The translations under genes were made by a program, and so were the position numbers. The notes beneath the pieces were generated by a model. It had not been told where the DNA came from. It did not search any database and saw only the letters and a program-made list of their open reading frames with translations. From Pararhizobium sp. (GTDB lineage Bacteria; Pseudomonadota; Alphaproteobacteria; Rhizobiales; Rhizobiaceae), in the NCBI RefSeq assembly GCF_965279435.1, contig NZ_CBDIHY010000002.1, positions 315,128 to 379,127 of the forward strand: DNA of 64,000 nucleotides, read 5' to 3'. Shown here one piece after another: positions 17,601-28,573 of this stretch; within the stretch, counting starts at the first letter, position 1, and each line of letters opens with the position of its first letter.

Positions 17601-18662
17601 CTATAGGATTGGAAGAGGCCTGCAGATGGCTGTCGACGCGCGCTCCACCAGATGGCAGGCGAGTTCGACGCGGCGCGGCGGCATCGGCAGGCCGGACAGG
17701 CTGTCGCGCAAAAGATCGAGGGCAACCGAACCGATCTCGCGCATCGGGATGTGCATTGTCGTCAACGGTGGATTGAGGAAAGAGGCCTGCGGCAGGTCGT
17801 CCATACCCATGACAGACACATCGCCTGGAACGGAATAGCCCCGCTGCTGCACGCCCATCATCGCGCCAACGGCCAGGCTGTCGCCGGCGGCCAAAACTGC
17901 AGTAAAATCCAGCCCATGCGCTTCTATCCTTGACGCAATGGCCTGCGCCGCCAGTTCCGGCAGCCAGTCATCGACGGGGACAACCAGATCCGCATCTGCG
18001 GCAAGCCCGTGATGTAGCAACGCATCCTTCCAGCCCTCGTAACGCCGCTCGATGGTGCGCCGCCCCGGCCGCATCAGGAACAAGATGCGCTCGTGACCGA
18101 GCCCGATCAGATGATCGGCTGCCAGCCGCGCGCTGGACCGGTTGCAGGGGGTGACGCTGGAAAGCCGCATGAACGGATCGTCGCTGTTGAGCAGCACAAC
18201 CGGCTTGTCGAAGCCGCGTGTTGCGGCCAGCATGCCCTCGTCATCGACGGTCAGGAACAGAAGGCCCGCAACCTGCGGATCATCCTGCGCCTCCTTGAGT
18301 ACGGCCAGTTCCTCGTTGCGATCGGCGATCGGTCGCGTGACGATCTCAAGCCCCAGTGCCAGCGCCCGTTCCTTCAGACCCTCGAGCACATAGAGGGTGA
18401 ACTGGTTGCGCACATAGTCGATCATCGCAGCACTCGATGCCGCCAGAATGACCTTCTGGCCTGCAATCGCCGTTGGAACCACGTAATTGGCGAGCTTCGC
18501 CGCTTCGAGCACCAGCTGGCGGATTTCCGGCCGCACACCTTTTTCGCCCGCAATCGCCCGCGACGCCGTGCTCAGCGATACGCCGCAGGCCTCGGCGATA
18601 TCCTCCAGACGCACACGCTTGCTCTTCTTTCCGCGTTTGCCCGCGATGGGTTTGACAGCCAT
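17601..18662 (-). CDS. LacI family transcriptional regulator
   Basis: RLEDIAEACGVSLSTASRAI HTH and NPPLTTMHIP. Divergent from the GH105 operon. Confidence 0.92.
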   Translation of the reverse strand: MAVKPIAGKRGKKSKRVRLEDIAEACGVSLSTASRAIAGEKGVRPEIRQLVLEAAKLANYVVPTAIAGQKVILAASSAAMIDYVRNQFTLYVLEGLKERALALGLEIVTRPIADRNEELAVLKEAQDDPQVAGLLFLTVDDEGMLAATRGFDKPVVLLNSDDPFMRLSSVTPCNRSSARLAADHLIGLGHERILFLMRPGRRTIERRYEGWKDALLHHGLAADADLVVPVDDWLPELAAQAIASRIEAHGLDFTAVLAAGDSLAVGAMMGVQQRGYSVPGDVSVMGMDDLPQASFLNPPLTTMHIPMREIGSVALDLLRDSLSGLPMPPRRVELACHLVERASTAICRPLPIL

Positions 18663-18777
18663 ATCGATCTCCGTTGCACCAACATGAGAAAAATTTTCAG
18701 ATTGCGCAAGGAAATTCGGCGTGCATTTATTTCCCCAACGAGCCGTCCCCAAGAGCGGCACATGTGGAGGAGCATTC

Positions 18778-19878
18778 ATGGGTCCAGATGGCCGCGATAT
18801 CAGCAACGGTCTCGATCGCCTTGTCGCCGGAACAACCGGCCTCAGGCACGACGGCCGTTTCCATGAGCCTAATCTCGATGGTACGGCTGGCGATTACATC
18901 AGCTTCGACAGCTGGGAATGGCCGCAGGGCGTTGGTCTCTATGGCCTGATCAAGCTCTGGCTGTTCACCGGCCGCGACGACCTGCGCCAGTTGGTCGAAG
19001 ACTGGTATCAGCAGCGTATCGATGCCGGGCTGCCACAGCTCAACGTCAACACCACCGCGCCGATGCTCGGCCTGTCGGTGCTCTGGGCAAAAACCCGTGA
19101 TCCACGCTGGCAGCCGGTTCTCGATGAATGGGCAAACCGGGTGATGGCGGAGCTTGGCCGCACGCCGGAAGGTGGCTTCGAACATCACGTCTCCGACAAG
19201 GTCAATCACGACGAACTGTGGGACGACACGCTCTATATGGTGGCCCTGTTTCTCGCATCCTATGGTCAGGCCAGCGGCCGTCGCGAACTGATTGACGAAG
19301 CCTCGCGCCAGTTCCTCGTCCACACCCGCTACCTCGCCGACACCCATACCGGCCTCTGGTTCCATGGCTGGACGTTTGACGGACGGCACAATTTCGCCCG
19401 GGCGCGCTGGGCGCGCGGCAATGCATGGATCACAGCGGGCCTGCTCGATCTGTTCGATCTCGCCGACCTTGCCAAGCCCGTAAAGGACTTCCTTCAGGGC
19501 GTACTGGTCGCCCAGGTCGATGCACTGTTGTCGCTTCAGGCCCCCTCCGGCGCATGGCGCACATTGCTCGACGATGCGACATCCTATGAGGAAATCTCCG
19601 CCACGGCCGGGATCGGTTACGGCCTGCTGAAGGGGTATCGCCTCGGCCTCGGCACTCCGGTGTGGCGCGAAGCCGGCCTCAAGGCCTTGCAGGTGGTGAT
19701 GGACAATATCGACGAGACTGGCACCGTTGGCAATGTTTCCTACGGCACCCGCATGGGCCATGACCTCCAGTTCTACAAGGACATTCCCATTCAACCGACC
19801 GGCTACGGCCAGGCACTGGCGATCCTGTGCCTTTCCGAAGGCCTGCAGCACGTCGGACAAGAAGGACAAGCAGCATGA
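18778..19878 (+). CDS. Glycoside hydrolase family 105/88 (unsaturated rhamnogalacturonyl/glucuronyl hydrolase, YteR-like)
   Basis: WEWPQGVGLYG, ELWDDTLYM, WARGNAW and YEEISATAG. GGAGGAG RBS. Confidence 0.9.
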   Translation: MGPDGRDISNGLDRLVAGTTGLRHDGRFHEPNLDGTAGDYISFDSWEWPQGVGLYGLIKLWLFTGRDDLRQLVEDWYQQRIDAGLPQLNVNTTAPMLGLSVLWAKTRDPRWQPVLDEWANRVMAELGRTPEGGFEHHVSDKVNHDELWDDTLYMVALFLASYGQASGRRELIDEASRQFLVHTRYLADTHTGLWFHGWTFDGRHNFARARWARGNAWITAGLLDLFDLADLAKPVKDFLQGVLVAQVDALLSLQAPSGAWRTLLDDATSYEEISATAGIGYGLLKGYRLGLGTPVWREAGLKALQVVMDNIDETGTVGNVSYGTRMGHDLQFYKDIPIQPTGYGQALAILCLSEGLQHVGQEGQAA

Positions 19879-20711
19879 CGATGAAGATTTTGTACGGCGC
19901 GGCCCCCGAAGACGTCAAAGGCTATGACACGGAAAAACTCCGCAGCGCCTTCCTGATGACCGACCTGTTCGTGCCGGACGCCGCCAGTTTCACCTATACC
20001 CATGTCGATCGCCTCCTTCTCGGCGGCGCCATGCCGGTGTCCAAAAGCGTGACCTTCGGTTCCGGCGACGAGATCGGTACGCCCTATCTGCTGTCGGCGC
20101 GTGAAATGGGCATCGCCAATCTGGGCGGTACGGGTACTGTGACCGTTGACGGGCAGGCGTTCACCCTGGAAAATCGCGACGTGCTCTATCTCGGCCGTGG
20201 CGCCCGCGAGATTTCAATGGAAAGCCTGTCGGGAAAGACCCCGGCCCGCTTCTACATGAACTCCGTCCCCGCTGGTGCCGATATCCCCCACAAGCTGATC
20301 AAGAAGGCGGAATCGAAGGCCATCGACCTGGGCGACGGCCGCCGCTCCAACAAGCGCCGCCTCGCCATGTACATCCATCCGGAAGTGACCCCATCCTGCC
20401 TGCTGTTGATGGGTATAACCGATCTCGCCGAAGGCAGCGTCTGGAACACCATGCCGCCGCACCTGCATGAGCGCCGCATGGAAGCCTATTGCTATTTCGA
20501 CATGGCGGCGGAAGATCGCATCATTCATCTGATGGGCCGACCCGAAGAAACGCGCCATCTGATCGTCGCCAATGGCGACGCCGTCCTGTCACCCGCCTGG
20601 TCTATCCACATGGGCGCCGGCACCGGCCCGTATGCCTTCGTCTGGGGCATGACCGGAGAAAACCAGGAATATAACGACGTGGCCCCGGTGGCCTTGGCAG
20701 AGCTGAAATGA
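19875..20711 (+). CDS. kduI: 5-dehydro-4-deoxy-D-glucuronate isomerase
   Basis: YTHVDR, WNTMPPHLHERRMEAYCYF and SPAWSIH are KduI motifs. Confidence 0.92.
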   Translation: MTMKILYGAAPEDVKGYDTEKLRSAFLMTDLFVPDAASFTYTHVDRLLLGGAMPVSKSVTFGSGDEIGTPYLLSAREMGIANLGGTGTVTVDGQAFTLENRDVLYLGRGAREISMESLSGKTPARFYMNSVPAGADIPHKLIKKAESKAIDLGDGRRSNKRRLAMYIHPEVTPSCLLLMGITDLAEGSVWNTMPPHLHERRMEAYCYFDMAAEDRIIHLMGRPEETRHLIVANGDAVLSPAWSIHMGAGTGPYAFVWGMTGENQEYNDVAPVALAELK

Positions 20712-23191
20712 CCCCGATGAGATCCTTGATGAACCGCAAATTGAACGCTGGCGACGCCATCCGCTACTGGCAGCTCGGAACGATTGCCGAAGAGCGCTTC
20801 GACGTGCCCGATGCACCGATGAAGGGCGAGATGGATCCGTTCTTCTTTCTCACCAAGCACAAGAACTTCATTCCGCACGAATATCCTTGCCGGACGATCT
20901 TTGCCGAAACCTATCGCGGCAAGCGCCCCGATGTCCGCGGCGCCTTCGAAGCGGTCCGTTGGTGGTTGCCGTTCGGCTCGCCGCGCCTCGATCTCTCCGG
21001 CTTCTGGTTCCGCCCGACCCGGCTTGCCACCTTTGCCCGCACATTCATTGCCGCTGAGAAAGCCGGAACCGCCAAGGTTCGCCTCGGCACCTGTGGCGGC
21101 GCGGTCCTCTGGGTGAACGGTACCGAAGCCGGCTGGATGGCGCCCTATAGTCGCAATCTGGAGGCAAAGGCGGAATTCGACCTGACGCTGCAGGAAGGCC
21201 TGAACGAGGTCACGATCTTCTTCGATGATCTGGCCGAACGCGACGCCCGCTACTTCTTCCAGCTCGATTACCTCAATGGCCCGGCGGCCAGCATTGCCGT
21301 TCCCGTGCCGATCGAGGGCAAGGTGGCCGAGACGATCGAGGCCGCCCTCGACAGCATGCATTTCGAGCGCACGGCCTATTTCGAAGGCGACATCACGCTG
21401 CGGCTTGCCGAGCCCCTGCCAGTGGATGTCGCTGTCAATGTCACGGTTGAGGGCGACTTCATGTCGACCGAACGCTTCGACTATGACTTTATCCTCAAGG
21501 CTGGCGACGCGCGTCTGGTCATCGGCCCTTCGGAAGCTGCACCCGCCGATTTCCGCCATTTCCGCATCGCGCTGAAAGCCGGCAACTTCGTTGCCTCGCG
21601 CTCGCTCGGTATCGAGATATGCCATACCGGCCGCCAAGGCACGGCACCGGCGACGCTTACTGAGCGCATCACGGAGACGCTCACCGAAGTCTCGGAATTT
21701 TCCGAACGCGACACTGTCCGCGCTTTCGCCCGGCTGGCGAGCGGCCGGAGCGGTGCCGATACCGATGCGATGATCGAGGAGATCCTGCCGTCGATCGAGG
21801 ATTGCCACGACTGCGCCGATTTTTCCCTCGTGCCGCTGATCTGGTCGCGCACCGTCTGGGGCAAGGATATCGGCGAAAAGACCCGCGCCCGCATCGACCG
21901 GGCCATTCTCGATTTCCGCTACTGGATGGACGAGCCCGGAAACGATGTTCAGTGGTATTTCTCCGAAAACCACGCCCTGCTTTTCCACACTTCCGCCTAT
22001 CTCGCAGGACACCTGCTGGCAGAAGAAACCTTCGCCCGCTCCGGCCGCAAGGGTGCCGAGCAGAGCGCCATTGGTGCCACCCGTGTGCGCGCCTGGCTCG
22101 ATCATTTCGAAGCTTGGGAAATGGCCGAGTTCAACTCGGCGCCCTACTTCCCGATCGATCTCAAGGGCCTGACGGCGCTCGCCGCGCTGTCGCCCGATGC
22201 GGATATCGCCGAACGGGCGAAGAAGGGCATCGTGCGCCTCTGCGAAGTGATTGCCCGCTCTGCGCACCACGGCATGGTCACGGCAGCACAAGGACGTTCC
22301 TATGAGCACACGCTCTGCGCCGGCCGCTCACTGGAGCTTTCTGGCGTCACCCGCCTGCTCTGGGGTGCTGGCTGGTATGGCCGCCGCGTCCATGCGCTTC
22401 CGCAGCTTGCTGTCTGCCTGCGCGATCATGATTTGGTCATTCCAGAAACGCTCGCCGCCGTTGCCAGCCATCAGGCAGACGAACATCAGGAATGGCGGTT
22501 TGCCCAGGGCCAGGACCGGTTTGCAGCCCTCTATCACTACAAGGGCCGCGATTTCGCCATGGGCTCCGCCGCGCATTATCGCTGGAATGAATGGGGCTAT
22601 CAGGAAACCATCCTGCATCTGCGCCTCGGCAAGCGGCCCGAAGCCGCAGTCTGGATCAACCATCCGGGCGAAACCATTCAGTTCGGGTACGGCCGGCCGT
22701 CCTTCTGGGGTGGGTGCGGCACTCTCCCTCGCGCTCACCAGTATCGGGGGCTGGCCGTACTCGACTTTGTGACCTTTGAAGAACAGCCTGATTTCACCCA
22801 TGCCTGGTTCCCGATCGCCGAATTCGACGAAAGCACTGTTCGCGGACGCCTTGCCATCGCCCGCAGCGGTGGCGGTGCGGTGATCCTGCTCGGCAGCACC
22901 GACCTGCAGCCAGTGACCACAGGTCCCTCGGCCAATGCGGAACTGCGCCAATACGGCCAGAACACCCGCTGGATCGTTCGGGTTTGCGAAGCCACTGATC
23001 TTAACACGGTGGAAAGCCGGTTCGCCTCACTGTCCGTCGCAGAGACGGCAGACGGCACGCTGGTCGTCGAAGACCCCGACTACGGCACGGTCACGTTCCG
23101 CAAGGATGGGTCGGTCGAGGCCGAAGGGCGGACAATCGTCCCCAGGGATTTCACGGTCGCGGGCGAAGTCGCCATGCTGGCCGCACACTAA
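20708..23191 (+). CDS. Large hypothetical protein (827 aa); candidate carbohydrate-active enzyme
   Basis: Translationally coupled to kduI; no signal peptide. Contains aromatic/acidic motifs DFRYWMDEPGNDVQWYFSENHALLFH, EFNSAPYFPID and HHGMVTAAQGRSY. Confidence 0.8.
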   Translation: MTPMRSLMNRKLNAGDAIRYWQLGTIAEERFDVPDAPMKGEMDPFFFLTKHKNFIPHEYPCRTIFAETYRGKRPDVRGAFEAVRWWLPFGSPRLDLSGFWFRPTRLATFARTFIAAEKAGTAKVRLGTCGGAVLWVNGTEAGWMAPYSRNLEAKAEFDLTLQEGLNEVTIFFDDLAERDARYFFQLDYLNGPAASIAVPVPIEGKVAETIEAALDSMHFERTAYFEGDITLRLAEPLPVDVAVNVTVEGDFMSTERFDYDFILKAGDARLVIGPSEAAPADFRHFRIALKAGNFVASRSLGIEICHTGRQGTAPATLTERITETLTEVSEFSERDTVRAFARLASGRSGADTDAMIEEILPSIEDCHDCADFSLVPLIWSRTVWGKDIGEKTRARIDRAILDFRYWMDEPGNDVQWYFSENHALLFHTSAYLAGHLLAEETFARSGRKGAEQSAIGATRVRAWLDHFEAWEMAEFNSAPYFPIDLKGLTALAALSPDADIAERAKKGIVRLCEVIARSAHHGMVTAAQGRSYEHTLCAGRSLELSGVTRLLWGAGWYGRRVHALPQLAVCLRDHDLVIPETLAAVASHQADEHQEWRFAQGQDRFAALYHYKGRDFAMGSAAHYRWNEWGYQETILHLRLGKRPEAAVWINHPGETIQFGYGRPSFWGGCGTLPRAHQYRGLAVLDFVTFEEQPDFTHAWFPIAEFDESTVRGRLAIARSGGGAVILLGSTDLQPVTTGPSANAELRQYGQNTRWIVRVCEATDLNTVESRFASLSVAETADGTLVVEDPDYGTVTFRKDGSVEAEGRTIVPRDFTVAGEVAMLAAH

Positions 23192-23272
23192 CGACGAAGC
23201 GCCGGCGAGGAGAAACCGGCGCCGGTTGCAATGCGGGCAAGGAGAAGCCCGTCCACAAAGGAGGAGGAAAGC

Positions 23273-24541
23273 ATGACCAGGACCAGAACGATGCTCGCGG
23301 CATTCGCCGTCGGGCTTTTGACGTCCACGGCAGCATTGGCCGGGGACGTACGAATCATGTGGTATTCCGATGGCGTCGAGGGCGAGGTCCTGAAGGACCT
23401 GATCGGCCGCTTCATGAAGGACAATCCGGATATCAAGGTCACCATCGACAACGTGTCTTACAGCGTTGTGCGCGAACAGCTGCCAGTGCAGCTTGAGGCC
23501 GGCGACGGTCCCGATATTGCCCGCGTCACTGCCCTGAAGGCATTGAGCAAGCATTGGCTGGATCTCAGGCCGCTGGTTGCCGACGCCGCCTATTGGGACA
23601 CGAACTTCGGCGATCAGGCGGACTGGATGCGCCCCGACGGCACCAACCAGATTTCCGGCTTTATGACACAGATCACGCTGACCGGCGGCTTTGCCAACAA
23701 GACGCTGTTCGAACAGGCCGGCGTTGCCCTGCCTGGCAAGGATGCGACCTGGGATGACTGGGCCAAGGCTTCCAAGCAGGTCGCCGAAAGCCAGCAGATC
23801 CCCTTCCCGATGGCGCTGGATCGCTCCGGGCATCGCCTGACCGCGCCCGACATTGCATTCGGGGCCAATTACATCGGCGCTGACGGCAAACCGGCGCCGC
23901 TTGACGAGAGCTCCAAGGCTTTCATCTCCAAGTTCATCGGCTGGATCGAAGACGGTACGATGAGCAAGGACGTCTGGGTATCGGCAGCCGGCTCGACCTA
24001 CCGCGCCGGTGCCGACGACTTCATCAACGGCCAGGTCGCGTTCTACTATTCCGGCTCCTGGCAGGTGCCGAACTTCTCGACCAAGATCGGCTCGAACTTT
24101 GACTGGGTCGCGACCGGTAGTCCCTGCGGCCCGGCAAACTGCACCGGCATGCCGGGCGGGGCGGGTCTGGTGGCGATCAAGTACACCAAGAACCCGAAAG
24201 ACGTTGCCGAGGTCATGGACTATCTGGCCAGCGAGCCGGTCGTGAAGGAGTTTTCCGAACGCACCCTGTTCCTGCCGGCCCACAAGGGCGTGATCGAGAA
24301 GGGGCTGGACTTCAAGACGGACGATGCGCAGGCCAAGACGGCGCTCGGCATCTTCGTCACGGCGTCTACCTCTCTGGCTGACCTGGCGCGCAAGCTGCCG
24401 GGTTGGGGCTGGTCCGACACGATCTACGGTGCACTCGTGACCCGTGTCAGCCAGGCGGCGGCCGGCGAGATGACGCTTGATGAGGCCTATACCCGTATCG
24501 ACGCGGATATCGCTGCCAAGGTCAAGGACTCGGCTCTCTAA
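23273..24541 (+). CDS. Carbohydrate ABC transporter substrate-binding protein (CUT1)
   Basis: Signal peptide; LEAGDGPDI and FINGQVAFYYSGSW. GGAGGAGG RBS. Confidence 0.9.
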   Translation: MTRTRTMLAAFAVGLLTSTAALAGDVRIMWYSDGVEGEVLKDLIGRFMKDNPDIKVTIDNVSYSVVREQLPVQLEAGDGPDIARVTALKALSKHWLDLRPLVADAAYWDTNFGDQADWMRPDGTNQISGFMTQITLTGGFANKTLFEQAGVALPGKDATWDDWAKASKQVAESQQIPFPMALDRSGHRLTAPDIAFGANYIGADGKPAPLDESSKAFISKFIGWIEDGTMSKDVWVSAAGSTYRAGADDFINGQVAFYYSGSWQVPNFSTKIGSNFDWVATGSPCGPANCTGMPGGAGLVAIKYTKNPKDVAEVMDYLASEPVVKEFSERTLFLPAHKGVIEKGLDFKTDDAQAKTALGIFVTASTSLADLARKLPGWGWSDTIYGALVTRVSQAAAGEMTLDEAYTRIDADIAAKVKDSAL

Positions 24542-24652: not shown

Positions 24653-25687
24653 ATGGCAGAGATATCCCGCCAGACCAGCCAGACGGGCCAAAGCCTGGGC
24701 GAGGCCGCCATGATGCCGGTGCGCCTTGCCATGGGCATCATCGATGCCCCCCTGCGCTGGGTCCAGAAGAAGTTTGGTCTGGGCGGCATGGCGGCATTCT
24801 TCCTGCTGCCCAACATGCTGATCTTCGGCATCTTCGTACTTCTGCCGTTCTTCATCAATTTCGCCTATTCCATGACTGGCGGCACCGCGCTGTTCCTGTC
24901 GGACCGTACCTTCGTCGGCGCGGACCAATATTCCAGGCTGTTCGACTGCTCGAACTACCTGAACCCCAATACCTGCGCCGAAGACACGTTCTGGACAGCA
25001 GTTGGAAACACCGGCTGGTTCGTCATCCTGCAGGTCACACTGATGATCGCGGTTTCGCTGATCACCGCGCTGATCCTCAACCGCAACCTGATGGCCCGCA
25101 GTTTCTGGCGCGCGGTGTTCTTCTTCCCAGTGCTGCTGTCGCCGGTCGTCGTCGGCCTGATCTGGAAATGGATCCTGCAGCGGCAGGGGCTGCTCAACTT
25201 CGGTCTCTACGGCTTTGGTTTTGATCCGCATGTCTGGCTGAACGACCGTAACTGGGCTTTCGCCGCCACCGTCGGTGTCTCGATCTGGGCGCATATGGGC
25301 TTCTACACGCTGATCATTCTCGCAGGCCTTCAGGCTATCCCGAAGGATCTGTACGAGGCCGCCGAGATGGATGGCACGCGAGCGATGCGCGTCTTTAGCC
25401 GTATCACCCTGCCTCTGCTGATGCCGAACCTGCTGGTCGTCATCGTGCTGGTGCTGATCCGTGCCGTGCAGATTTTCGATGAAGTCTATGTGCTGACCGG
25501 CGGCGGTCCAGGCACCAGCACACTGTTTGTCACGCAGTACATTTACGAGACCGGCTTTGCTGCACAGTTGCGCAATCCAGGCCTTGCCGCCGCTGCCTCG
25601 ATCCTGATGGGCCTCGTGCTCGTTGTCCTCACACTCGTGCAACTCGGCCTCAGCCGTTCACGTGACAAGAAGGGAGCCCGCAAATGA
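24653..25687 (+). CDS. Carbohydrate ABC transporter permease
   Basis: LAGLQAIPKDLYEAAEMDG EAA loop. Confidence 0.92.
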   Translation: MAEISRQTSQTGQSLGEAAMMPVRLAMGIIDAPLRWVQKKFGLGGMAAFFLLPNMLIFGIFVLLPFFINFAYSMTGGTALFLSDRTFVGADQYSRLFDCSNYLNPNTCAEDTFWTAVGNTGWFVILQVTLMIAVSLITALILNRNLMARSFWRAVFFFPVLLSPVVVGLIWKWILQRQGLLNFGLYGFGFDPHVWLNDRNWAFAATVGVSIWAHMGFYTLIILAGLQAIPKDLYEAAEMDGTRAMRVFSRITLPLLMPNLLVVIVLVLIRAVQIFDEVYVLTGGGPGTSTLFVTQYIYETGFAAQLRNPGLAAAASILMGLVLVVLTLVQLGLSRSRDKKGARK

Positions 25688-26736
25688 GCCGGGCCATCGA
25701 ATTCCTGTTTCGCCGCAAAGGCGGCAAAGGCTGGCACTGGACGGATATCGTCACCTGGGTCTGGCTGATCGTCGGCCTGTTCGTGATGTTCGGCCCGGCC
25801 GTCTGGCTGACGGCATCCTCGTTCAAGTCGCCCGCAGCCCTTGCCGAGTTCCCGCCGACCATCCTGCCCTATGTCACCCAGAAGGTGACGGTTGAAGGTT
25901 ATGACAAGCCGCTCGATCTCTACACCGCGACGCTGGAAGATGGCAGCACGGCGACGCTCGCTGAAGTTCGCCGCATCGGTACCGTCAGCCAGATGGTCGA
26001 TCCCGAAAAGCCCGCCGAGATCATCAAGGTCAACATCGCCAAGCGCACGCCGGTCCGGCAGATGTCGTTTGCGACCGAGAACTATACCGAGCCCTTCACC
26101 CATTTCGATTTCGTCCGCTACCTCTGGAACTCCGTCTTCGTCACGGTAACCGCAACGCTGATCACATTGGTGGTCAATTCCATGGCGGCGTTTGCGCTGA
26201 GCAAATACGAGTTTCGCGGCCGCACGTTCGCGATGCTCCTCATCCTCGCGACGCTGATGGTGCCGCTGTCGGTCATCATGGTGCCGCTCTATTCCATCGT
26301 CTCGGCGCTTGGCCTGTTCAACAATCTCTGGGGCGTGATCCTGCCGACGGTGGCGACGCCGACCGGCGTTTTCATCCTGCGCCAATATATGCTGACCATC
26401 CCCGACGAACTGCTGGACGCCGCCCGCATGGACAAGGCGTCTGAATGGCAGATCTACTGGCGCATCATCCTGCCCCTGACAGCACCGGCGCTCGCCGTAC
26501 TCGCCATCTTCTCCGTCGTCTGGCGCTGGAACGACTTCCTTTGGCCGCTGATCGTGCTGTCGCGCAAAGAGCTCTATACCTTGCAGGTGGGCCTCAGCAT
26601 CTATTCCGGCGAGCTCAACGTGCAATGGCATTTCATCCTGGCGATGACGGTCGTGACCATGATCCCCGTGGTTCTGGTCTTCCTCTTCCTGCAGCGCTTC
26701 ATCACCACCGGCATCGCCGGAACCGGCCTGAAATAA
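25684..26736 (+). CDS. Carbohydrate ABC transporter permease
   Basis: IPDELLDAARMD EAA loop and WNDFLWPL. Confidence 0.92.
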   Translation: MSRAIEFLFRRKGGKGWHWTDIVTWVWLIVGLFVMFGPAVWLTASSFKSPAALAEFPPTILPYVTQKVTVEGYDKPLDLYTATLEDGSTATLAEVRRIGTVSQMVDPEKPAEIIKVNIAKRTPVRQMSFATENYTEPFTHFDFVRYLWNSVFVTVTATLITLVVNSMAAFALSKYEFRGRTFAMLLILATLMVPLSVIMVPLYSIVSALGLFNNLWGVILPTVATPTGVFILRQYMLTIPDELLDAARMDKASEWQIYWRIILPLTAPALAVLAIFSVVWRWNDFLWPLIVLSRKELYTLQVGLSIYSGELNVQWHFILAMTVVTMIPVVLVFLFLQRFITTGIAGTGLK

Positions 26737-26745
26737 GGGTTCATC

Positions 26746-27831
26746 ATGGGACATATCAAACTCACCAATGTCGCAAAGTCTTTCGGGGCAATCGACGTGC
26801 TCCATGACATCAATCTGGAGATTGCTGACGGCGAGTTCGTCGTCTTCGTCGGCCCGTCCGGCTGCGGCAAGTCCACGTTGCTGCGCATGATCGCCGGTCT
26901 CGAAAAGCCGACCGGCGGCGAACTCGCCATCGATGGCAAAGTGGTCAACGCCATTCCCGCCGCCGATCGGGGGCTTGCCATGGTGTTCCAGTCCTATGCC
27001 CTCTACCCGCATATGAGCGTGCGCCAGAACCTCGCCTTCGGGCTCGAAAATACCAAGATGCCGAAGGCGGAGATTAACACCCGCATCACCGAAGCGGCCC
27101 GCATGCTGGAGATCGAGCATTACCTCGACCGCCGACCCGGCCAGCTCTCTGGCGGCCAGCGCCAGCGCGTCGCTATCGGCCGGGCGATCGTGCGCCGTCC
27201 CGTCGCCTTCCTGCTTGATGAGCCACTGTCCAACCTCGACGCTGAACTGCGTGGCTCAACCCGCGCCGAACTGGCTGCCCTGCATGCCCGCTTGTCCGCA
27301 ACCATGATCTACGTCACCCACGATCAGGTCGAGGCGATGACGCTTGCCGACCGCATCGTCGTGCTGCGTGCCGGACGCATCGAGCAGATCGGCACGCCGA
27401 TGGAACTCTACAATTCCCCGGCAAACCGCTTCGTCGCCGGCTTCATCGGCTCGCCACACATGAATTTCCTCGAAGGCTCGGTGGAACCGTCATCCACCGG
27501 CAAGGCCGTCGCCACCTTCGCCGGCGGCAACAGGCTGGAACTGCCGGTCGCCGCCAGCAGCCTTGCCCACGGTTCCGCCATCACGCTCGGCGTCCGGCCG
27601 CAGCACGTCTCGATTGGTACCAACGGCGAAGGCATTGCGGCCAAGATCAGGCTGGTCGAAGCGCTGGGTTCGGAGACCATCGTTCACACCGATGTCGCCG
27701 GTCAGAAAATCCTGGTCGTCGCGCAAGGACAGCATAACCTGACGCCGGGAGCGGATATCCGCCTGGCACTGTCATCGGCGCCGTTGCATCTGTTCAACGA
27801 GAAGGGGTTGCGCCTTGAGCACGCTGTTTGA
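26746..27831 (+). CDS. Sugar ABC transporter ATP-binding protein (MalK/UgpC-like)
   Basis: [25 protein letters not shown]. Confidence 0.94.
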
Positions 27832-28573
27832 TCTTTCTGGAAAGGTGGCGCTGGTCACCGGCGCGCGAACGGGCCTTGGCCAGGGCATGGCGCTGGCGCT
27901 CGCCCGCGCGGGCGCCGATATCGCCGCCCTCGGCTCCAGTCCGATGCCGGAAACGGCCGAAGCCATCGGCCAGACCGGCCGCCGGTTTCATGCGCTCGAA
28001 GTAGATCTTTCGCAAAAATTCGATGCAAAAGAGGTCATGGGCTCGGTCGTCTCTGCACTCGGGGGCATCGATATCCTCGTCAACAATGCCGGCATCATCC
28101 GCCGGGCCGATCTGCTCGATCATTCGGAAGAGGATTGGGACGCTGTCCTCGACGTCAACCTGAAGTCGGCCTTTCTGCTGTCGCAGGCCGTGGCAAGCCA
28201 CATGGTCGAGACTAGGCGGCCCGGACGGATCATCAATGTCGCGTCGATGCTGTCTTACCAGGGCGGCATTCGCGTGCCCGCCTATACTGCATCCAAACAC
28301 GGTATTGCCGGCCTGACCAAAGCCATGGCCAACGAACTTGCGCCGTTCGGCATCACCGTCAATGCCATCGCGCCCGGCTACATGGAAACCGACAATACCG
28401 AAGCATTGCGCAACGACACCAACCGCAATGCCCAGATCTCCGCCCGCATCCCGATGGGCCGCTGGGGCACGCCGGACGATCTCGCCACCTCGGTACTATT
28501 CCTTTCCTCTCCCGCCTCCAGCTATGTCACCGGTATTACCGTCCCGGTCGATGGCGGCTGGCTGGTGCGCTAA
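27815..28573 (+). CDS. kduD: 2-dehydro-3-deoxy-D-gluconate 5-dehydrogenase
   Basis: SDR with [32 protein letters not shown] and VDGGWL. Same operon as kduI. Confidence 0.88.

Follow-up and report, generated by a model that had tools for sequence, protein, structure and literature searches.

How does an operon built to process unsaturated uronates obtain its substrate, when none of its genes encodes a recognisable lyase? This question is raised by a locus of Pararhizobium sp. (contig NZ_CBDIHY010000002.1), contained in a window of 64,000 nucleotides (the whole stretch of DNA that was analysed), in which the genes for a GH105-type unsaturated uronyl hydrolase, KduI and KduD stand together with those of a sugar ATP-binding cassette (ABC) importer. 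GH105, KduI and KduD act downstream of an elimination. An original prediction, made from the sequence alone, had stated that the operon lacks a recognisable lyase, which held on domain scans of the operon genes, and had pointed to the gene that follows kduI, here called X, as a candidate new carbohydrate-active enzyme (CAZyme). On the basis of the modelled fold, the conserved residues and the genomic partners, we hold with moderate confidence that X would be a cytoplasmic exo-acting oligouronide lyase, probably active on pectic oligomers, that feeds GH105. It is probably also the founder of a polysaccharide lyase (PL) family that is new to Pfam, NCBIfam and the PDB, on a known toroid-plus-sandwich fold that has gained an extra PA14-like module.

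20708-23191, + strand: X, cytoplasmic protein of 827 aa from a family that is not catalogued; candidate oligouronide lyase.

The fold carries most of this argument. The full-length AlphaFold2 model of X (pLDDT 84, pTM 0.85) is made of strands over residues 1-304, about 12 helices over residues 305-590 and strands again over residues 593-827, and its secondary structure matches the beta-rich N-terminus, helical middle and beta-rich C-terminus that had been read from the sequence. When the whole chain is searched with Foldseek, the GH2 N-terminal sugar-binding domains dominate at a TM of about 0.12, and GH78 rhamnosidases are listed too. These GH2 and GH78 matches were rejected: their TM values lie at 0.11-0.17, they come through the N-terminal beta domains, and they are gone once those domains are removed. 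As the N-terminal jelly-roll had dominated the whole-chain search, residues 305-827 were modelled separately, from an alignment extended to members at 25-37% identity from the fetched loci described below. The regions delimited in this way are the following.

20960-21307, + strand: X residues ~85-200, a PA14-like or GH2-N-terminal-like jelly-roll (weak PA14 matches, Foldseek GH2 domains, faint PDB matches to PA14 and carbohydrate-binding modules).

21620-22477, + strand: X residues 305-590, a predicted (alpha/alpha) toroid of about 12 helices (models, Foldseek, conservation).

21968-21973, 22145-22147 and 22295-22303, + strand: toroid residue sites N421-H422, Y480 and R530/Y532, respectively.

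22484-23188, + strand: X residues 593-827, a predicted antiparallel beta-sandwich that carries N651-H652-P-G-E655, R663 and H698, with H652 at 22661-22663.

The model of residues 305-827 reached a pLDDT of 88.7 and a pTM of 0.90, and its Foldseek search against the PDB returned 19 matches at E <= 1e-3, all of which are toroid-plus-sandwich lyases or dermatan-sulfate epimerase. They comprise GAGase II/VII (PL35), Alg17c (PL17), Atu3025 (PL15) and Dp0100 (PL39), and further chondroitinase AC, xanthan lyase, a PL8 alginate lyase, the apo chondroitinase 9o3q and human dermatan-sulfate epimerase 1, with a probability of about 1.0, a TMq of 0.22-0.44 (0.34-0.44 for most of them) and an identity of 7-12%. 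Glycoside hydrolases, those of the six-hairpin type (GH78, GH127/146, GH95) included, appear in this search only at E >= 0.017, with probabilities of 0.1-0.6. A GH127/146-like Cys-Zn hydrolase was considered separately and rejected, with only one conserved Cys (C369) and a fold probability of 0.4. At the level of the predicted fold, the models and the Foldseek matches confirmed that X belongs to the toroid-plus-beta-sandwich superfamily of uronate lyases (PL8, 12, 15, 17, 21, 23, 35, 39), and the earlier guess of a layout reminiscent of heparinase II/III-like lyases, with an (alpha/alpha)-toroid plus a beta-sandwich, was thereby borne out. The N-terminal jelly-roll, for its part, probably binds carbohydrate. 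Weak PA14 matches to the N-terminal part are found in 16 of the 58 diverse members of the family that were scanned (below the gathering score, best E 5e-4), while X itself is unmatched.

The conservation of residues within the family, computed over 106 diverse sequences at 23-100% identity, is consistent with an active site at the place where such lyases carry theirs. The motifs that had been picked out in the helical middle are all there (E420-N421-H422, E474-F-N-S-A-P-Y480 and H520-H-G...G529-R-S-Y532), and they hold some of the best-conserved polar residues of the family: N421 (99%), H422 (99%), Y480 (98%), R530 (98%) and Y532 (96%). In the sandwich, R663 is conserved at 96%, H698 at 89% and H652 at 84%, and other highly conserved polar residues are D368, D371, R404, S419, H427, S477 and Q632. 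Conserved acidic residues are also found, namely D408 (96%), E409 (97%), D413 (98%), E420 (99%) and E474 (98%). Altogether, about 45 positions show at least 90% conservation among sequences at 23-60% identity, and these are concentrated in the loops of the toroid and of the sandwich.

The published catalytic sets of PL35, 12, 15, 17, 21 and 39 comprise an Asn and/or His that acts as neutraliser, then a Tyr at a distance of 52-57 residues and, 130-166 residues beyond this Tyr, a His of the sandwich (PMC12088678), and these lie, relative to the C-terminal boundary of the toroid, at -141 to -169, -87 to -116 and +38 to +79 (PMC12088678, Tables 3 and 4). In X, N421/H422, Y480 and H652 stand at -168, -110 and +62 from the end of the toroid, with spacings of 58 and 172. 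In the AlphaFold2 model, H422 and Y480 are each found where a helix begins, the second of these helices coming two after the first, and H311 and Y365 show a similar sequence pattern in the alignment of Atu3025. By conservation and linear position, it is thus suggestive that N421/H422, Y480 and H652 are equivalent to the published Asn/His-Tyr-His set. The least confident segments of the model (41-57, 414-420, 473-478, 526-540 and 658-670) are the most conserved loops, a low confidence that is expected if the active site is flexible.

The fold is not accompanied by any similarity that sequence methods could detect. The open reading frame of X has no internal stops, and the number of its homologues indicates that the gene is not a chance open reading frame. 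X gave only a sub-threshold pentapeptide match in Pfam, no match in NCBIfam, and no match, hence no lyase, among PDB chains with phmmer at E <= 10. Two profiles, built from 28 close and from 58 diverse members, were searched against the PDB at the same threshold, and they returned no lyase and only faint N-terminal matches to PA14 and carbohydrate-binding modules (CBM). When the 58 diverse members were scanned one by one against Pfam at E <= 1, no bridge appeared to Hepar_II_III, DUF4962 or Alginate_lyase. Profile comparison with hhalign gave a probability of 0.4% against the host's own heparinase II/III protein, of <= 0.6% against a single PL15 sequence (the Atu3025 orthologue), and of 0.2% against a 60-sequence PL15 profile (<= 0.6% in both comparisons, over the full length and over residues 395-500 alone), which is shallow, its homologue set being 78-100% identical. 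Neither X nor the 58 members show the marks of PL15 (Pfam DUF4962, PF16332, with Hepar_II_III_C, PF07940, and similarity to Atu3025), and no sequence membership of PL17, PL35, PL39, PL12, PL21 or PL8 was found with phmmer or hmmsearch against PDB chains at E <= 10. As for PL22, X has no match to PF14583 (Pectate_lyase22), and its fold differs. In the 90%-identity clusters, the homologues of X are always named "hypothetical" or "uncharacterized", the RefSeq plasmid annotation likewise reads "hypothetical protein", and our literature search found no characterised member of the family, nor a newly founded PL family that matches it. The description of X as an unknown protein and candidate new CAZyme therefore stands, since no sequence method ties X to a curated family, and X should be placed in none of the PL families that were tested.

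The company that X keeps in other genomes connects it to the release of unsaturated uronates. The family is large, with at least 777 homologues among 90%-identity clusters and 1,711 representatives at 50% identity in an exhaustive search, 610 of them with E <= 1e-30. About 79 of the 88 fetched loci, which are mostly from Rhizobiaceae at 76-96% identity, keep the arrangement LacI | GH105-KduI-X-SBP-permease-permease-ATPase, with or without KduD (SBP stands for the periplasmic substrate-binding protein). In an even sample of Pseudomonadota the distribution is patchy, X being carried by 10 of 401 genomes, and X adjoins GH105 directly in 8 of the 10 loci that were taken from eight of the nine carriers besides the window's own genome, at 28-78% identity to our X. 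Three gene orders are met among these neighbours: GH105-KduI-X, GH105-X and X-GH105. The two exceptions (L099, G442:C114, and L104, G328:C1) are second Rhizobiaceae paralogues, 61% identical to X, which have LacI and a paralogue of the ABC importer for neighbours, but not GH105, KduI or KduD; the genome G442 also holds, beside GH105, an X that is 31% identical (L097).

In two independent metagenomic lineages, X is even fused to a C-terminal GH88/105 domain (L005 8288-11806; L006 4426-7920). The first of these fusions lies beside GH28, and the other beside a YdjC-type deacetylase, an MFS_2 transporter and a short-chain dehydrogenase/reductase. The fusion forms that were seen (L005, L006, P0234, P0131, P0133) include X-GH105 proteins of 1,164 and 1,172 aa and an X-ROK protein of 1,040 aa. 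Still longer proteins, of about 1,500 aa, carry X as their C-terminal half, after an N-terminal ~800 aa without a Pfam match.

Other partners widen this picture. In a betaproteobacterium (L002), the order LacI | GH105-X-TRAP (tripartite ATP-independent periplasmic transporter) is found beside a PL22 gene, and in another locus (L091) the X member directly precedes PL22. Plasmid pR132501 of R. leguminosarum WSM1325 carries X-GH88 family-GH28-ABC, and Pseudosulfitobacter plasmids carry a GH88 family gene, TRAP, kduD, LacI and kduI-X. In the clades that are linked to GH105, the presence of GH28 and PL22 as partners suggests that the substrate is pectic oligomers. Relatives of X were seen on 200 plasmid records, 123 of which are from Rhizobium (about 30% identity) and 40 from Pseudosulfitobacter of diatom cultures (50% identity); they are also present on Photobacterium plasmids and in three records of the haloarchaeon Haladaptatus. 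Divergent clades at about 30% identity (L089 10001-13270; L090 4059-7346) are followed by a Glucosamine_iso gene (NagB / 6-phosphogluconolactonase family), and their further neighbours are either ROK and ABC genes or a gene of the ADP-ribosylglycohydrolase family, which suggests other substrates, with a hint of amino-sugar-containing ones.

In the window itself, Pfam and NCBIfam scans give the order LacI | GH105-KduI-X-SBP-permease-permease-ATPase-KduD, in which the LacI gene is divergent. The neighbours that had been predicted (GH105, PF07470; KduI; a CUT1-type ABC importer; KduD; a divergent LacI) were thus all identified, and the elements of the locus around X are as follows.

17601-18662, - strand: LacI-family repressor, 353 aa, with its ATG as the complement of 18660-18662; Pfam LacI and Peripla_BP_3.

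18691-18709, no strand assigned: invariant 19-nt block AAATTTTCAGATTGCGCAA with the palindrome TTGCGCAA, between lacI and GH105; candidate operator.

18778-19878, + strand: GH105-type unsaturated uronyl hydrolase, 366 aa, with the ribosome-binding site GGAGGAG; PF07470, E 3.5e-82.

19875-20711, + strand: KduI, 5-dehydro-4-deoxy-D-glucuronate isomerase, 278 aa; NCBIfam equivalog NF002091, 374 bits; PDB 1xru, 7e-86.

23273-24541, + strand: periplasmic SBP of a CUT1-type sugar ABC importer; Pfam SBP_bac_1; signal peptide MTRTRTMLAAFAVGLLTSTAALA.

24653-25687 and 25684-26736, + strand: two ABC permeases, both Pfam BPD_transp_1.

26746-27831, + strand: ABC ATPase of the MalK/UgpC type; Pfam ABC_tran, OB_MalK and TOBE_2.

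27815-28573, + strand: KduD, 2-dehydro-3-deoxy-D-gluconate 5-dehydrogenase; equivalog TIGR01832, 375 bits (cut-off 339).

The genes are tightly packed. The stop of GH105 and the start of kduI share an ATGA overlap (19875-19878), and the sequence reads in the same way at the next junction, where the ATG of X (20708-20710) overlaps the TGA stop of kduI (20709-20711). Downstream, the likely start of the SBP lies at 23273, and not at 23231, judging from an AGGAGG ribosome-binding site and the signal peptide, which places it 81 nt after X. The coupling of X between kduI and the sugar ABC genes, as originally described, is thereby upheld. X was also said to lack a signal peptide, and this agrees with its hydropathy: over the first 60 aa, the highest value for a 12-residue stretch is 0.22, whereas the SBP reaches 1.99, and no hydrophobic segment was found. 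A cytoplasmic site for X would follow from the missing signal peptide and from the oligosaccharide importer of the operon. All the PDB relatives of the SBP are distant, so that the ligand cannot be inferred from them.

The GH105 gene deserves some attention, as X would feed its product. Its protein matches 3qwt, 3pmm and 4xuv in the PDB at E 1e-80 to 1e-90, and the alignment to 1nc5 shows that it retains the active-site residues of YteR (His132, Trp141, Asp143, Met147, His189, Trp211 and Trp217), as listed in PMC4528949. It has a Trp at the position of Tyr41 of YteR, which has also been reported for RhiN and YesR (PMC4528949). The same protein exceeds the cut-off of the NCBIfam equivalog NF051900, 'beta-galactosidase BglB' (541 bits, cut-off 420). 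This name looks at odds with the YteR-type active site and with the candidate LacI operator and kduI on either side, and its origin was not found in our literature search.

The starts of the two divergent genes were set by comparative alignment, over seven species for lacI (18662, - strand) and likewise for GH105 (18778, + strand). The longest-open-reading-frame calls (17601-18806, with a TTG at 18806, for lacI; 18721-19878, with a GTG at 18721, for GH105) are over-extended and overlap each other. In the spacer between the two genes, all the columns of AAATTTTCAGATTGCGCAA are identical in 7 Rhizobiaceae loci, while the surrounding spacer is variable in the comparative alignment, and this block is likely the LacI operator, as far as its conservation tells. 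A scan for promoters and terminators and a search for inverted repeats in this spacer gave nothing convincing. No terminator-like site was found downstream of X, in the 81 nt before the SBP gene. This spacer does hold two small GC-rich hairpins (23199-23252; minimum free energy -29.1 kcal/mol, z-score -2.0 against shuffles), which may be an intra-operon element that stabilises or attenuates the mRNA.

The complement of the host genome bears on where the unsaturated ends come from. The host has only one GH88/105 gene, plus KduI and KduD; PL1, PL10 and PL22 were not found in its genome, PL2, PL3, PL4, PL9, PL11 and PL26 not having been searched for, and GH28 gave only a marginal match. With PL1, PL10 and PL22 absent, X is left, among the families tested, as the host's only candidate of its own for making unsaturated ends. 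The only canonical heparinase II/III-family protein of the host (561 aa, PF07940) is encoded elsewhere, beside purH (G000:C3:1313355-1314089; L093 1480-3165, - strand).

From these elements, we can propose how the pathway would run. The CUT1 ABC importer would bring in acidic oligosaccharides, most likely pectic ones derived from homogalacturonan or from the rhamnogalacturonan-I (RG-I) backbone. In the cytoplasm, X would abstract the C5 proton of the uronate at subsite +1, as its fold, conservation and context suggest: N421/H422 would neutralise the carboxylate, and Y480 and a sandwich His (H652 or H698) would serve as base and acid. The beta-elimination at O4 would free the non-reducing sugar and leave a 4,5-unsaturated uronate end, which GH105, to judge from its active-site residues, would then hydrate and release as unsaturated uronate. 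This product would open to 5-keto-4-deoxyuronate, and KduI and KduD, in line with their equivalog matches and with the known pathway, would convert it to 2-keto-3-deoxygluconate (KDG). By acting alternately, X and GH105 could reduce the oligomer to monomers, and this alternation would explain why the two are adjacent or fused in many lineages. The original proposal of an intracellular oligosaccharide lyase or hydrolase thus finds support in the GH105 neighbourhood, in the fusions and in a host without PL1, PL10 or PL22; that X has lyase activity, and on pectin, is what we infer.

Several observations weigh against an oligouronide lyase. No homology at the sequence level connects X to any PL family tested, whether by hmmscan of the 58 members, by the two profiles against the PDB or by hhalign, and the TM-scores of the Foldseek matches are moderate (0.35-0.44). 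The equivalence of the residues is argued from their linear position and not from a structural superposition, and the candidate sandwich histidines, H652 and H698, are less conserved (84-89%). Furthermore, the conserved acidic cluster (D368, D371, D408, E409, D413, E420 and E474) is an odd environment for an anionic substrate, and could be that of a hydrolase or of a metal site. Finally, some clades of X sit with NagB-like and ROK genes instead of GH105, and LacI and ABC genes are all that accompanies one paralogue, so that the specificity, and possibly the chemistry, would vary across the family.

The alternative that survives best is that of a glycoside hydrolase on a lyase scaffold, which would remove the saturated sugar that is exposed after GH105 has acted on imported lyase products made outside the cell; it could be, for example, an exo-rhamnosidase or an exo-galacturonidase on RG-I or homogalacturonan oligomers. 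The logic of the operon fits such an enzyme equally well, including in the operon of R. leguminosarum where X stands with GH105 and GH28, and the acidic residues D408, E409, D413, E420 and E474 could provide its acid/base carboxylates. GH78 rhamnosidases are listed in the whole-chain Foldseek search, and nearby microbes could supply unsaturated oligomers to a host that has no secreted PL1 or PL10. However, the matches to GH78 and GH2 (TM 0.11-0.17) are lost without the N-terminal beta domains, and the catalytic half alone finds no glycoside hydrolase better than E 0.017 (probabilities 0.1-0.6). In addition, a hydrolase would have no obvious use for the near-invariant Asn-His...Tyr set and its positions like those of lyases, and the fusion to GH105 is more naturally the relation of a producer to its consumer. 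We therefore regard a hydrolase as unlikely.

The acidic residues can also be read as the sign of a chemistry that is new to this scaffold. The loop R404-Y-W-x-D408-E409-P-G-N-D413...S419-E420-N421-H422 would then form, together with D368 and D371, a metal or acid/base centre, an idea that we consider doubtful. It could allow a metal-assisted elimination, new to toroid lyases, or the hydrolysis of the sugar exposed by GH105, and the clades of the family would act on pectic oligomers (those with GH105, GH28 or PL22) or on amino-sugar-containing ones (those with NagB-like and ROK genes).

It is a good deal less probable that X modifies uronates in imported oligomers without cleaving them, whether by epimerising C5 in the manner of dermatan-sulfate epimerase or by some other reaction that passes through a C5 carbanion, and so makes the oligomers usable for other enzymes. 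The human enzyme, dermatan-sulfate epimerase 1 (6hzn), ranks with the best structural matches (TMq 0.44), and the epimerases of this fold share the His/Tyr/His chemistry, but the operon has no need of an epimerised product, GH105, KduI and KduD being all post-elimination enzymes; the bacterial cytoplasmic oligosaccharide operons whose enzyme has this fold (PL15, PL17) encode exolyases, and the tight linkage and fusion to GH105 indicate the making of unsaturated ends. As for a non-catalytic carbohydrate-binding or regulatory protein that would travel with the operon, the PA14/CBM-like N-terminal domains are in its favour, but the ~45 positions at least 90% conserved in toroid and sandwich loops, the size, fold and start/stop overlaps with enzyme genes that are typical of an enzyme, and the single bifunctional-looking polypeptides of the GH105 fusions make it very improbable.

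If X is a lyase, as we favour, about 1,700 sequence clusters would form a new polysaccharide lyase family that is missed entirely by the current CAZyme annotation. X would then supply the "missing lyase" of the many operons with GH105, KduI and KduD that rhizobia, roseobacters and other bacteria possess, including those that large plasmids carry in Rhizobium leguminosarum, R. etli and R. phaseoli. This would change the genome-based inference of the use of pectin and acidic glycans by bacteria associated with roots and algae, and would add an exo-acting enzyme for making or degrading defined uronate oligosaccharides.

The known systems to which X can be compared share with it either the fold, or the proposed role, or both. 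Human dermatan-sulfate epimerase 1 (6HZN) has the same fold as that predicted for X, the highest TMq (0.44) and a His/Tyr/His set at the C5 of the uronate, but this eukaryotic enzyme of the Golgi epimerises without cutting the chain, and it has no sequence similarity to X. The PL35 GAGases (8KHV/8KHW) and the PL8, PL12, PL21 and PL39 enzymes have, like X, a two-domain fold, with the best Foldseek E (7e-7) obtained for 8KHV. In PL35 and related toroid lyases, Tyr and His are the Bronsted acid and base and Asn is the neutraliser (PMC12088678). Unlike X, the lyases of this group are secreted or located in the periplasm, cleave glycosaminoglycans or alginate in endo or exo mode and belong to other sequence families, and the toroid of X is shorter than theirs (~285 aa against 317-342). 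The PL22 enzyme Ogl resembles X in its proposed role, as it is a cytoplasmic lyase that cleaves pectic oligomers after their import, ahead of KduI and KduD, whereas it is a Mn-dependent beta-propeller (PF14583) of unrelated fold; X and PL22 being neighbours in two lineages, the two would be complementary, and not interchangeable.

In function, X would resemble PL17 Alg17c (4NEI/4OJZ) and PL15 Atu3025 (3A0O/3AFL), which are among the top Foldseek matches. They differ from X in sequence, with a Foldseek identity of 7-12% and hhalign probabilities below 1%, and X has neither their Pfam domains (DUF4962, Alginate_lyase, Hepar_II_III_C) nor the H-x-H-G-D sandwich motif of Atu3025. Conversely, X has, unlike PL15 and PL17, a domain that resembles PA14 and a WxDEPGND loop of acidic character, and its partners (GH105, GH28, PL22) point to pectin and are not alginate genes. 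Like X, however, both of them consist of a toroid followed by a beta-sandwich, PL15 having an N-terminal beta domain as well, and their catalytic Asn/His, Tyr and His occupy linear positions comparable to those of the candidate residues of X. They are exo-type cytoplasmic oligo-alginate lyases that act on imported oligomers and feed the route through 4-deoxy-L-erythro-5-hexoseulose uronate (DEH) and KDG, which is the same setting as the one proposed here for X.

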